From contig NC_042999.1 in the NCBI RefSeq assembly GCF_006345805.1, positions 92,938,001 to 93,002,000 of the forward strand: 64,000 nucleotides of DNA, in the 5' to 3' direction. This document shows positions 2,971 through 63,568 of this stretch, piece after piece. This stretch comes from Octopus sinensis (Eukaryota). The position numbers were made by a program, and so were the translations under genes. The notes below the pieces were generated by a model that saw only the letters and a list, made by a program, of their open reading frames with translations, was not told the origin of the DNA and did no database searches. The first letter of the stretch is position 1. Every line of letters starts with the position of its first letter.

Positions 2971-3050
2971 AGTGATTTTTATTAAATTATTTTAGCATTT
3001 TCTACCTTGACCTTTTTCCATATATATATATATATATATATATATATATA

Positions 3051-4524
3051 GATTTAAAAAAGGAGATGTGGAACACGAGTTGTGATATATAAATAAAGGA
3101 AATGAAGAAAATGCTGACAATATAATTTAAGTAAGGGAGAGTGTATTTAATTAGGTGAAAGTTATTTTTTTAAACAAAAAAAGAGAAAAATTGGGTTAGA
3201 ATACAATGTTCATTTTTTGTGAATGATTTCAGTGTATAAGAAAAAAAGTAAGAGTCTTTTAGAGTGTTCTGTTTCAGAATAAGATATTTAGTAATATACC
3301 CAGCGAATAACCATGGGATCCCACCTTATTAATAAATACAGACCACTTCTAAACACATCCCCCTAACACGAACCCACAACAAACACACTTACACCTGCAC
3401 ACACCCTACACACACTTTTACCCAGATATTAACACCATGACACACGCAAACATATGGTTCCACACATACACATAATTTGATACGAGCACAAAACATCCAA
3501 CAATATTTTTTGGAAATTAGTGTAAATATTGACTTCACACAAACACGTTGCTTCCCGATACAGGCACAAGGCCAGCAAAACTATAAATATTGAAAATTGT
3601 ACCCACACACGCACACATATATACACGCGCGCGCGCCTCAACACACATATAAACACACACACACGCACACATACATACATATAGCTCTTCCTGTCCTAAA
3701 CGAACTTACTTTTCCAGCTCAAATTCAGTCAAGCGGAAAATACACTCCTTAACTACGCGCTAAAAAGCTATTCAAAATATCCACATGACGTCTACTGACC
3801 AGCCTGAACAATAAGAATTTTCAACAACGCTATTTTCGAAAACTCCATACACCACCTACATCAACATTCATTCTAAACATTCACTTGACCTCTCTATTAT
3901 GACCACATTCACGTGGCCTCTTTATTATGACCAATAAGAAATTTTAGGCGCAATACCAGCCAAATTTTAACATCTCTGGAGCCTATTTTCTCACCCCAAC
4001 ACCAACTTCCATTCAAACATTCACGTGACCCCTTTATAATGACCAATCAAAATTGTATTGACCATTGTCCACAAGAAATTTTAGGCGCGAAACCAAACAA
4101 ATCTTAAACAACTCTGGAGCCTCTTTTTCACATATAAGACACAGCAAACCCAACATAAAGTCAGATAAGAGAAAAAAATCAATCAGAAAGGAACTCTATC
4201 TCACTCAAAATATCTTTTGATAAGCATAACAAATGCGCAACCGGTAAACTCTTACTTTTTTTATTCTACACTGAAATCTGACATTAAACTTTTCCATAAA
4301 AAACTGTATCTTACACGCTTTTACTAAATATCTTATTCTGAAACAGAACACTGTAAAAGACTCTTACTTTTTTTCTTATACACTGAAATCATTCACAAAA
4401 AATGAACATTGTATTCTAACCCAATTTTTCTCTTTTTTTTTGTTTAAAAAAATAACTTTCACCTAATTAAATACACTCTCCCTTACTTAAATTATATTGT
4501 CAGCATTTTCTTCATTTCCTTTAT
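3051..4524. mobile_element. 1.5-kb non-coding insertion with ~200-bp inverted arms, bounded by (TA)n; probable PLE derivative
   Basis: 3093-3294 is the reverse complement of 4321-4524 (one substitution plus a poly-A length difference). (TA)n lies at 3020-3050 and 4522-4608. There is an internal degenerate duplication at ~3877-4128 and an eroded HHR-like motif at 4217-4246. Confidence 0.7.
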
Positions 4525-4659
4525 ATATATATATATATATATATATATATATATATATATATATATATATATATATATATATATATATATATATATATAT
4601 ATATATATCAACTATGTATTACTTTTCAAACTTATATATATATATATATATATATATTA

Positions 4660-58836: not shown

Positions 58837-61734
58837 AAGACCAAACATATACATATTTATATATGTAAATTCCATTTATGTTTCAGCCTTGGAGATTACA
58901 TAATAAATCTTGTCGTACGAGTAGCGGCTATGATGTACTATCATCCGACGAATCCCCCGTGCCCCCTGTTCTATTTAGTCCATTCACTCTTTCCATAGTG
59001 TGTATCATTAACTGTGCATGTTTTTCTGTCTGCATCTGTGTGTATTAAATAGCATCTTTAGAATTTTGTGAAAACGCCTGAAATTGGTTGTTCAAGAAAG
59101 ATTTTTTATTAAACTTAGTGTATAATATTGATGCTTTCTTCTCCAGTCATATTGCGCGTGTATATATATATATATATATATATATATATATTGCCAAATA
59201 AACACTCACAGTATATATTCTTTCTTCACTCGTTTATTATTATTATTATTATTTTATCTTATTGCTATTGTCTGGAAATCTTTCGTTACACAACAGTGAT
59301 CTCTTCAGTGACTCTTCCATCCCACGTTTCCCACCTTACTGTGTTTAGCCCAACCAAAATATACTAGAGATTCATGTTCGTGGATGATACCCATGGCTAC
59401 GATCAGCATGTCTTTTTCGGAAACCTTTAGATAAGGTAAATCTATTAATTAATGTAGTAGAAAGGCTAGGAACTCCCAATAAAATCTCTGATCTGTAGAA
59501 CATATCTATTTGATAGATACGGTGAACTACTGTATAGTATATAAAGTGACCCAACAGGTTAACTGTAAGATTAGGAATGTAGTCTATAGCTTACTACGGT
59601 GCAGAAACAAGACAACTTATCTTGGGAAGCCGGCATGTAGCATAGAGGAGCGGATAAGCGTACACTGGTAGGAGCTCAAAAAGGAGACAATCTCGTCCGT
59701 ACTATCCCAACATGATCAATTTGTACACAGGTTAAGGCATTATCTACGCATAGAACAGACACAACACTTAGACCACGGAGGCAACACACATAATAATAGA
59801 CAAACCGAACCTCAAAAGAAAACACGAATGAAACAATAATACCCACCACCACCACCACCACCACCACCACACTACGTGACACGAGGACTAAAGACAGAAG
59901 CGGCGAAAGAGACAAATACGAACAGTATAATAATTTGTATTGTGAATTTCCTCACTAGAACCGAATGTTCCACATAATAACATAATACAGTTATATCCCC
60001 AGATAATTATTTGGTGTGCAGCAAAAAGCAGTTAAATGGCATCTTCTCAGATGCTTCTTTATTTTGAAAAACGAAAACCAAACTCTTATTGGAAAATCTA
60101 TATAAACCTATATACAAACACATACAAGAAACACATACACAATCTAAGAAAATAGAAAAAGAGATAAATAAATAAATGAAAGGAAAACTATATAAAGGGC
60201 ACGGAATATAAAGAATATAGTGAGCGAACTCATACACACACACCAAAACACATAGAAAACACATAGACACGCGTACACACATGCACGCACACAAGCACCC
60301 CCCACACATACACATATGTATACACGTACTCACACCTCTTGTCTATTCATGTCAATTCCAGTGCTAGATTATCCAATGAGAATTTGGTTTCCTTTATTTA
60401 AAGAAAAACCAAATTTTCTTTAAATAAGAAAATTTATTTAAAGAAAGCGTCTGAGAGGACGTGTCATTTAATTGTTTTTTGATGCACAACAAATTATTAT
60501 TGGTTCTTGTGAGGAAATTCACAACACAAAGTGAATTTCTTGGACCTGGAATTAAAATCAGATCGGTTAACTAACTTACTAGACATGCTGTGAATCCGTC
60601 TACCTTCTGACATTAAATATATCACTAAAAGAGTCGAGTGACGATGAAAGATCCCCAAAGTCGATTCTTTGGAATCATAGCCAAATTCTCTTTAAATCAA
60701 AGTCTGCAATATTTAGAAACGCAAGGGCACATTAGATAATGTATGGAAGTAAAATGATTGAAAAACATATGTAAATGTGACACATATATAAATGTCTATG
60801 ATAATATATCTGTTCCATGAAGTAATGCAAAGACCCACAAAGACCAACATCAACAAGAAGATTTATTACCAAAGGTATCTCTAATTCGGTATATCTGAAA
60901 ACATCTGCCAAATTAATGAAACTGTTGCGTTTGATTTGAGGTAGATTTGGCTCCTATTTTTAAAGGATCGAGCGACCGTGTATTGGCTTGCACGTTCGCT
61001 CGTCAGAATTCTTTTACACTGTGACAGACATGTACATTTAAAATTAGAAAGTCAGTTATATCCGTCAGAGATTGATACCCATGCATACTGTTATAAAAAA
61101 AAGAACCATCCAGTAATCCCTGTCAGTTATTCAGTTGAAATGCTTCAAATATGTCACACTAAGTCATGGTTTATGTAACATGGATACTTTTACGAGTACG
61201 ATTCGCATAAAAGCTATCAAAATATCTAAAGTAGATTTCACAAAGTACTGATGTACTGCTGTAAACTATATCAAATATTTACTATAAGACGTATAAAACA
61301 TACACACAAACAAAACCGCATGCGTTTACGAAGATTTTCTCTCTTTCTCTTTCACACGCATATGCATACAATCACACAGCTATAGGCGCACATTAAAATA
61401 TAAGTATAAAACACACAAACACACACAAACACACGCACAGTCATGTTAGTTGCAGTCGGCTGTAACATACACAGAGATTCGAGGGAGCATAGACTTACCT
61501 ACAAGTTATACGTACAACCATATGCCTGTACTAAATACATGCATTTAGCACAAGCATACTCACGTACACACATACACGATCGCACGCGCGCACACAGTCA
61601 CTCAAATACACACACACATACACACACACACATATATATATATATATACATACATATACATTTGATGTATATGTATATATATGTGTATATATATATATAT
61701 ATATATATATATATATATATATATATATATATAT

Positions 61735-63568
61735 AGTGTAATAAATAAAATATATGCATACATACAAACATATATGTACGTACCTACATCTACATGTATA
61801 TATACATGCATATATAAATATATATACGTGTGTACAGGACACCACAAATAGACGTAGAACTCAACGAGAAACGAAAAAGTAAAAACAGCATGGGACGGAC
61901 CACTTTTTAACAACGAAAAAACCAGAGTACAAGACAACTACACAAGGAAAAAACCCCTTCATCAGCTGTCCCTAGTTCAACTCCAGCGTGTTTCGAAGGT
62001 GAGGACAGAAAACGTCTCGCCGAACAAGTCCTTACTGCGAAAGAATTAAATAAAATTCCTTTGCAGAGGGGTAAACACAAGGGAAAAAGAAGTGACAAAA
62101 ACAGGACGTAAAAACAATACAAAATAAAAATACAATTACAAAAAATACAGTACAAGAGGGAATAGAAACAGGACAGGAAAACAAATAATGAAGGCCTATA
62201 AGCCTAGACGAGGAAAAAATTTTCACGAGCGCAGGAAGAAACATGTTTACTTGAAGAAGGCCGCCAGTGAAAGGAAGTTCGTCAACCCGGCTGTGAGAGA
62301 GATGAGGAGGAGTGAGAGAGAGAGAGAGAGAGAGAGATAGAGAGAGGAAGGAAGCCAAAGAGGGTGAAAGAGAGAAGAAGGAGTTATAGAGTTTCGCGTC
62401 ATAATTATGTATAAAAACCAGTTTAGAGAAGAGGAATAACGAATCGAATCGAATAGACGCGAGGGCGCTCAGTCATACAATAGTGTAATAAATAAAATAT
62501 ATGCATACATACACACATATATGTACGTACCTACATCTACATGTATATATACATGCATATATAAATATATATACGTGTGTACAGGAGACCACAAATAGAC
62601 GTAGAACTCAACGAGAAACGAAAAAGTAAAAACAGCATGGAACGGACCATTTTTTTAACAACGAAAAAACAGAGTACAAGACAACTACACAAGGAAAAAT
62701 CCCCTTCATCAGCTGTCCCTAGTTCAACTCCAGCGTGTTTCGAAGGTGAGGACAGAAAACGTCTCGCCGAACAAGTCCTTACTGCGAAAGAATTAAATAA
62801 AATTCCTTTGCAGAGGGGTAAACACAAGGGAAAAAGAAGTGACAAAAACAGGACGTAAAAACAATACAAAATAAAAATACAATTACAAAAAATACAGTAC
62901 AAGAGGGAATAGAAACAGGACAGGAAAACAAATAATGAAGGCCTATAAGCCTAGACGAGGAAAAAATTTTCACGAGCGCAGGAAGAAACATGTTTACTTG
63001 AAGAAGGCCGCCAGTGAAAGGAAGTTCGTCAACCCGGCTGTGAGAGAGATGAGGAGGAGTGAGAGAGAGAGAGAGAGAGAGAGATAGAGAGAGGAAGGAA
63101 GCCAAAGAGGGTGAAAGAGAGAAGAAGGAGTTATAGAGTTTCGCGTCATAATTATGTATAAAAACCAGTTTAGAGAAGAGGAATAACGAATCGAATCGAA
63201 TAGACGCGAGGGCGCTCAGTCATACAATAGTGTAATAAATAAAATATATGCATACATACACACATATATGTACGTACCTACATCTACATGTATATATACA
63301 TGCATATATAAATATATATACGTGTGTACAGGAGACCACAAATAGACGTAGAACTCAACGAGAAACGAAAAAGTAAAAACAGCATGGAACGGACCATTTT
63401 TTTAACAACGAAAAAACAGAGTACAAGACAACTACACAAGGAAAAATCCCCTTCATCAGCTGTCCCTAGTTCAACTCTAGCGTGTTTCGAAGGTGAGGAC
63501 AGAACACGTCTCGCCGAACAAATCCTTCCTGCGAAAAAATTAAATAAAATTCCTTTGCAGAGGGGTAA
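61735..63568 (-). repeat. Head-to-tail tandem of a 747-bp non-coding unit (2.46 copies) starting at a (TA)n tract
   Basis: Units start at 61735, 62482 and 63229 (the last is 340 bp). The duplicated ORFs 62032-62358 and 62779-63105 are exactly 747 bp apart. Confidence 0.95.

Follow-up and report, generated by a model that had tools for sequence, protein, structure and literature searches.

A stretch of 64,000 nucleotides of the Octopus sinensis genome (contig NC_042999.1, positions 92,938,001 to 93,002,000; hereafter the window) holds a tandem array of a Penelope-like element (PLE)-type family beside a (TA)n microsatellite, and this array carries a predicted hammerhead ribozyme whose catalytic core is split. 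On sequence grounds, the split-core form is probably a seventh natural hammerhead topology, active in self-cleavage, and together with the type CSG hammerhead it probably constitutes the hidden ribozyme of many Naiad PLEs, from corals to octopus and nematodes. The window is AT-rich animal DNA, dense in microsatellites, with dozens of TA runs, defined here as (TA)≥5. The local statistics and the TA-targeting test described below cover these 64 kb.

Split-core hammerhead in the tandem array

The elements of the motif follow the order IIa / IIIb-UH-Ia / IIb-GAAA-IIIa / Ib-CUGAUGA, which is that of a predicted non-circular hammerhead opened inside its core, between A9 and G10.1. CUGANGA, GAAA, UH, the G10.1-C11.1 pair and stems I–III with covariation are all present, the S, G and C blocks lie within ~100 nt, and the Ia-IIb linker measures 3 nt. 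The better partner of the 3' strand of stem II was located ~70 nt upstream of the core, not after it. Moreover, a fourth helix of 7–9 bp pairs the 3' side of IIa with the 5' side of Ib, at the position of the I-II helix described by Eckert et al. (2023; PMC10085705). In copy 3, the intact one, stem I comprises 6–7 bp, stems II and III 5 bp each, and the I-II helix 7 bp.

Scanning the window for all six block orders yielded 8 matches, only 3 of them with a canonical core; these three all lie in the array and show the S-G-C order, a non-circular arrangement so far described from metatranscriptomes only. A descriptor of the split form, drawn after the motif had been seen, recovered copy 3, and as good a match occurred in 0/60 shuffles. 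The motif has no Rfam hammerhead match, and no hammerhead was found among the 150 Rfam matches listed for the window (of 235) or in targeted Rfam scans. Reading the array as a type I hammerhead spread over three units, with loops of ~700 nt, was rejected as needless. The preliminary description of the window, which treated the array as a concatemer, had not remarked on the non-circular rearrangement of its hammerhead.

Sequence variation was evaluated using the contigs of three sequencing runs (X3, X2, and X8, with three organism labels; 62487-62581 was left out as a repeat). Copy 2 shows 3 mismatches and 2 G-U in 25 predicted pairs. The majority letters of the three runs (97-100%) turn all 3 mismatches and 1 G-U into Watson-Crick pairs and restore G10.1 of the upstream IIa, and the remaining G-U is made Watson-Crick by a 12-16% variant. 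Six minor variants fall in the motif: two keep pairing, three lie outside the helices, and one (11-13%) breaks an end pair. No variant of at least 5% was listed in the core, GAAA, or UH in any of these runs.

Alternatively, the array motif could be a plain type SGC hammerhead, in which the G-run that directly follows CUGAUGA-A pairs to form stem II and block C stays intact. The S-G-C order, the 3-nt linker, and the I-II helix are as in the available text of Eckert et al., and the downstream G-run shows no variant of at least 5%. However, the downstream helix contains 2 G-U in 4 bp and its duplex energy is 0.0, compared with -4.6 kcal/mol upstream; the G10.1 restored by the majority letter is the upstream one; and the downstream option offers 0-1 bp in metagenome loci with an S block. 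A plain SGC hammerhead is quite unlikely.

Split-core motifs in independent families

Metagenome contigs were searched with a pattern that fixed only stem II, GAAAC, and CTGATGA and left stems I and III and UH unspecified, apart from C15.2. At least 120 loci were found (~180 estimated); the exact pattern of the window family gave 0 matches in these contigs. UH, a stem I of at least 4, and a stem III of at least 3 were present in 64 of the 120 loci listed and in 6/22 clusters, with a chance level of 22 of 6,600 after spacer shuffling. One of the six passing clusters is a deletion variant of the largest, leaving 5 independent families, and 55 of the 91 copies in the largest cluster pass.

Nine passing representatives, the window motif included, were then compared. 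As a MAFFT alignment of the nine motifs was out of structural register, pairs were counted from landmarks by script. In stems I and III, 85/90 cells are paired, with up to 4 pair types per position, a value that is partly due to selection since the representatives were chosen among passing loci. All 4 Watson-Crick pair types occur at each of I.1, III.2, and III.3, and dealing strands among the families gave a mean of 55 and a maximum of 80 paired cells. Across families the core is conserved, and the letters of the four helices change while remaining paired.

The motif also occurs behind a Naiad open reading frame (ORF). In locus L058 it lies 115 nt after an intact 914-aa ORF with an N-terminal GIY-YIG, CxC, DKA, and YIDD, which bears the diagnostic features of Naiads. 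Naiad reverse transcriptase (RT) matches were detected upstream on the same strand in 6 of the 120 loci listed, L058 included, and in 0 loci without an S block. In another locus (L051, 114-1796, + strand), the C-terminus of a Naiad-like RT is joined in frame to a ubiquitin hydrolase (UCH) domain, and a split-core hammerhead follows 64 nt after the end of this fusion.

Craig et al. (2021; PMC8557442) reported cores and half cores in Naiads but no canonical hammerhead, and raised the possibility that hammerheads are mere parasites of PLEs. The published Naiad consensi (PMC8557442 supplement, parts 13-16) were read by eye in search passages covering 60/62 CTGATGA, 60/81 CGAAAC, and 23/23 CTGACGA places of the whole supplement. 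In these passages, the split form was recognised at no fewer than 8 places, including three Acropora and two Octopus families (by file order). Type CSG was likewise recognised at 8 or more places, including three Nippostrongylus families, in clean form and with the I-II helix. Together they account for at least 16 places in 54 Naiad families, a lower bound obtained by eye. Published Naiads are likely a source of type CSG, which in the available text of Eckert et al. is so far represented by two metagenomic sequences.

Evidence on self-cleavage

We consider it likely, from the conserved letters and predicted pairing, that the split form cleaves its own RNA. Several points weigh against this interpretation or its extension to the window family. 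The nested minimum-energy fold of copy 3 differs from the ribozyme (z +0.87) and pairs IIb with purines at and after the core, in a program that cannot draw pseudoknots. The G-run 3' of the core is also invariant in the array family, which leaves room for an SGC-type pairing. Depth shows no step at the predicted cut site, and the evidence on cleavage consists of sequence and predicted pairing. Among the families, 36/91 copies of the largest cluster fail, the nine representatives are a selected set, one published split-form example has a stem I of only 2 bp, and two Saccoglossus Naiads in the passages covered carry a different motif without the core. A tblastn search with the Naiad protein P0152 found no Naiad ORF in the window, so the array family is linked to Naiads by its RNA architecture; a longer master copy could exist elsewhere.

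The fold might also be conserved yet non-cleaving or protein-dependent, serving as a recognition or pausing structure for the RT. This would be consistent with the genomic copies that span the cut site, with the existence of competing helices, and with the anole PLE hammerhead, which is dispensable for insertion in vitro, is protein-assisted, and has no read ends at its site. However, the catalytic core letters and UH are all kept across families whose stems differ, and we regard a non-cleaving fold as unlikely.

Origin of the tandem array

In the two deepest runs, the summed depth, which is no copy number, was 1e5-8e5 over most of the 3' 400 nt of the family, 3e3-2e4 further upstream, and 15-100 just past the tail. 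Such a profile points to a family of very high abundance, biased toward its 3' end and carrying a 40-nt tail. At the unit-junction region of the array, depth was near single-copy. Copy 2 is a mosaic, with the 5' variants of copy 1 and the 3' variants of copy 3, and at the repeat offset the sequence matches itself letter for letter over 481 positions. These two features fit a 1.45-unit partial tandem that was later duplicated, or an assembly duplication, better than rolling circle; the later-duplicated tandem is the preferred reading of the concatemer. The family shows traits of Naiads: a partial tandem, a tail, 5' truncation, (TA)n insertion (at one junction), and no canonical hammerhead.

A different explanation holds that the small TA-associated inserts of the window are dedicated non-autonomous retrozymes moved in trans by a TA-targeting PLE, the array being a rolling-circle concatemer. 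In favour of this, no RT ORF is present in the 747-bp unit, the 3' part of which reaches extreme abundance, and retrozymes have been proposed as PLE derivatives. The array has the tandem non-coding units of retrozymes; however, the type I hammerhead expected in each unit is missing, the mosaic copy 2 and the 481 identical letters across the offset speak for local duplication, the unit-junction depth is near single-copy, and three inserts have no hammerhead. Furthermore, sequence comparison in the window showed that none of the small inserts matches the 5' or 3' end of the Hydra-type element, the only coding PLE of the preliminary description. Their mobilisation by that element as non-autonomous units stays hypothetical, and truncated or inverted 3' ends of other PLE families account for them equally well. 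Dedicated retrozymes remain a possible but doubtful explanation.

One array unit contains a pyrimidine tract ending in CAG (63040-63100, - strand), a splice-acceptor-like candidate. An old copy of the array family at ~8120-8440 and a type I motif at 8942-8878 had been overlooked before. The segment 8560-9011 (- strand) starts at (TA)n, contains a motif that resembles a type I hammerhead and has a long stem II, and lies just upstream of the old split-core copy; the two are possibly a composite insertion.

TA contact of the inserts

All nine inserts (9/9) of the preliminary description were found in the sequence. They had been said to abut or be bracketed by (TA)n, and seven are bracketed; 58626-58836 and 61735-63568 meet TA at the 3' end only, the nearest TA on their right being 211 and 1833 nt away, respectively. 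A TA run lies within 9 nt of 9/9 left ends and 6/9 right ends, and the seventh right end is flush once that of the second insert is set to 4963, which replaces 4945. For comparison, 1.6% of non-TA positions in the window lie no more than 10 nt from a TA run.

As the insert list had originally been picked by TA contact, selection-free tests were added, comprising fold-back arms, control repeat ends, and a hammerhead scan. In 4/4 fold-backs (arms ≥70 nt, identity ≥82%) one arm is flush with TA and starts at an internal AT-rich site, and the other end is left with 34-155 unpaired nt. Among other interspersed repeats, 0/40 alignment ends (not curated termini) touch TA. A relaxed type I scan, in which positions 3 and 8 could form any Watson-Crick pair and both U4C and one extra nucleotide were tolerated, gave 4 matches in the window compared to a mean of 0.06 per shuffle (100 shuffles), with cleavage sites 50-190 nt from TA. 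The excess of hammerhead folds that had been set as a test is thus present, and the claimed PLE TA targeting with PLE-type inverted and tailed structures holds up.

It could be argued that TA contact is background or secondary, the TA runs having grown from insertion sites, and that the fold-backs are DNA elements resembling miniature inverted-repeat transposable elements, with terminal inverted repeats. The abundance of TA runs and the original selection of the inserts by TA contact are in line with this. However, the asymmetric arms of all four fold-backs, the control repeat ends, and the large excess of hammerhead matches over shuffles make it very unlikely. The TA-resident PLE landscape is largely known biology already.

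Hammerhead content and structure of the small inserts

Most of the inserts other than the coding one had been described as carrying whole or half hammerheads, inverted arms, or tandem units. The nine comprise four with whole motifs, two with half motifs, and three with none. The whole motifs are of type I in 29640-34072, 34102-34300, and 58626-58836 and rearranged in the concatemer 61735-63568. Half motifs sit at the inversion point of 4660-4945 and 56455-56736, the latter with a G-U pair and overlooked by a strict scan. Window scans detected no credible hammerhead in 3051-4524 (negative for any block order), 16131-16262, or 42722-43355. GAAA-palindrome-TH alone occurs 97 times, of which 20 fall within the inserts (9,485 nt) and 77 in the rest of the window (54,515 nt); at 97 per 64 kb half motifs are too common and were rejected as stand-alone evidence.

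The inserts at 16131, 42722, and 56455 belong to one family. The half hammerheads at 4733 and 56625 both start ~16-17 nt ahead of the predicted cut, and this start coincides exactly with the inversion point; reverse transcription may stall at stem II. The motifs at 34285 and 58756 combine a palindromic stem III, an extra nucleotide after A9, and stems I and II with noncanonical core letters. At 34285 (motif 34292-34243) the core has G3-C8 instead of C3-G8, plus an extra G, and at 58756 it has U4C, so that both the 3-8 swap and the U4C core proposed earlier are present. Each is a single copy in the window with no Rfam hammerhead match, and a literature search returned no natural G3-C8 variants. 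PLEs typically show inverted 5' copies, partial tandems, and one-sided tails (PMC8557442), and we infer that ~five further PLE families gave rise to the small inserts, as 3' ends that are either 5'-truncated or inverted.

Hydra-type element and other features

The coding insert (29640-34080) is a decayed Hydra-type PLE, a clade known to target (TA)n in Octopus. It consists of RT remains, an Asn-rich insert, a linker, a GIY-YIG region, and a long 3' region, and its nearest named protein is from Octopus sinensis (92% identity). Its RT motifs, compared by eye, fit the Hydra rows of the alignment of Craig et al., and full-length relatives align over the RT, the linker, and the C-terminal endonuclease. 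GIY-YIG lies C-terminal to the RT, CCHH is absent, and CxxC and CxH (the latter in a shifted frame) stand beside E/N. In the CxCX5C linker the second Cys is Phe; this linker is intact in the relative P0093. The element is truncated upstream of the RWK and DKT motifs, and matches begin at residue ~217. Pfam does not recognise the two Hydra fragments, and a word search with the endonuclease piece gave no match. The canonical hammerhead and the (TA)n insertion of Hydra PLEs are both present, and Hydra-1_Obim, Naiad_Obim, and Naiad_Ovul are listed as (TA)n-targeting (PMC8557442). Beside the 3' end of the Hydra-type element, a 60-nt stretch between two TA runs (29569-29628) is perhaps another PLE tail.

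Elsewhere in the window, 11208-14882 (+ strand) holds an L1/Tx1-like RT element that includes zf-RVT, has its 3' part duplicated, and sits within (CTAT)n arrays, a different microsatellite-associated retroelement. A broken RT element with (AAT)n runs on its flanks lies at 22385-26017 (+ strand), and a decayed 18S rRNA fragment at 26426-26787 (- strand).

Table 1. Coordinates of the array, hammerhead motifs, and inserts in the window
Feature	Coordinates	Strand	Remarks
Array, 2.45 head-to-tail units (747 bp)	61736..63568	-	PLE-type family, non-coding and very abundant; 3' end without a tail meets (TA)n at 61735
Family 3' tail, ~40 nt	62440..62482	-	Absent from the copy touching TA
Old decayed copy of array family	8120..8440	-	Recognisable motif, core at 8374; nhmmer E 2e-9
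Split-core motif, intact copy 3	63453..63528	-	IIa 63528-63524; GAAA 63488; CUGAUGA 63459-63453; predicted cut after 63503
Split-core motif, copy 2	62706..62781	-	Four weak or broken pairs, restored by majority letters in three runs
Split-core motif, copy 1	61959..62034	-	Same lesions as copy 2
Fold-back	3051..4521	-	210-nt arms at 98%, 34-nt tail; no hammerhead found
Fold-back	4657..4963	+	72-nt arms; half hammerhead 4733-4744 at inversion point; 155-nt unpaired 3' part
Short tail-less piece, 42722/56447 family	16133..16262	+	32-nt duplication; no hammerhead
Fold-back, same family as 56447 and 16133	42722..43355	-	78-nt tail; no hammerhead
Fold-back	56447..56733	-	93-nt arms, 80-nt tail; half hammerhead 56625-56636 in inverted segment
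TA-bracketed 198-nt insert with minimal type I hammerhead	34103..34300	-	Motif 34292-34243; stems I 7 bp, II 5 bp
PLE-type 3' end touching TA with minimal type I hammerhead	58626..58845	-	Motif 58760-58726; U4C core, extra A
Further type I hammerhead-like motif	8875..8945	-	Stem I limited to 3 bp; (TA)n at 9012 is 70 nt away
5'-truncated, frameshifted Hydra-type PLE	29640..34080	-	RT remains 34068-33283; C-terminal GIY-YIG region 32410-32027
Type I hammerhead of Hydra element	29824..29933	-	CUGAAGA, 85-nt stem II, palindromic stem III, UC site; fold z -6.4

Proposed mechanism

It is quite likely that the inserts are 3' ends of ~six PLE families placed by target-primed reverse transcription into nicked (TA)n, and that the split-core hammerhead of the tandem family forms a self-cleaving triple pseudoknot. 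The PLE assignment draws on the Hydra motifs, the tails and inversions, the 3'-biased depth, and the anole PLE protein, which cuts both strands of AT-rich DNA in vitro and has two reverse transcription start sites that define the tail. [quoted passage not shown] Priming on both target strands would produce fold-backs in which one arm directly abuts TA and the opposite end bears a tail, and most copies would halt near the structured ribozyme, leaving short inserts.

The split motif itself may be a member of the SGC/CSG/GCS class opened between A9 and G10.1, in which the I-II helix would hold IIa and Ib in place. With its long, non-palindromic stem III it could cleave as a monomer, whereas the minimal type I motifs would need dimers. 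It might trim read-through tandem transcripts, insertion proceeding mostly from uncut RNA, and the 2.45-unit array would have arisen from a 1.45-unit partial tandem via a later 747-bp duplication.

Comparison with known systems

The element at 29640-34080 resembles Hydra-clade PLEs (PMC8557442) in its RT motifs, C-terminal GIY-YIG without CCHH, type I hammerhead, and (TA)n insertion, and differs in its Asn-rich insert, 2.3-kb 3' region, 85-nt stem II, and degenerate linker cysteine. The minimal type I PLE hammerheads of Cervera and de la Pena (2014; PMC4209133), which include U3-A8 core covariation, share with the motifs at 34285 and 58756 the palindromic stem III, the extra nucleotide between 9 and 10.1, and the 3-8 covariation; the G3-C8 and U4C cores, each a single putative copy, do not appear in the available text of that paper. 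Non-LTR retrozymes (Li et al., 2026, bioRxiv 10.64898/2026.07.22.740005) share with the array the non-coding tandem units, a hammerhead per unit, and PLE kinship. In the available text, however, they are defined by type I motifs, which their pipeline demands, whereas the array carries the split form and resembles a partial tandem that was duplicated locally.

Like Naiads (PMC8557442), the window family combines (TA)n insertion, partial tandems, a tail, and 5' truncation. The split motif recurs, with other stem letters, at the 3' ends of Naiad_Obim and Naiad_Ovul. Compared to the published Octopus Naiads, the window family lacks an ORF and differs in its 3' sequence.

Types SGC and CSG (PMC10085705) share with the split form the non-circular pseudoknotted order, the full core, the short Ia-IIb linker (TCA both here and in the SGC-1 oligo), and the helix between IIa-3' and Ib-5'. 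In contrast to type SGC, IIa is found ~70 nt upstream of the core instead of directly after CUGAnGA, so that block C is not intact. The scheme of Eckert et al., in the available text, assumes that CUGAnGA and stem II are adjacent and the core block uninterrupted, and it derives non-circular hammerheads only from metagenomes and metatranscriptomes. No description of the split form was found in the open-licence papers searched; the split-core order appears to be new and breaks this block assumption. A conserved split-core form in Naiad-type 3' ends challenges Craig et al. on Naiads and Eckert et al. on the uninterruptible block, and would imply that self-cleavage is kept under selection across PLE clades. 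If the interpretation is correct, Naiads do not lack hammerheads, and non-circularly permuted ribozymes are abundant in animal chromosomes.

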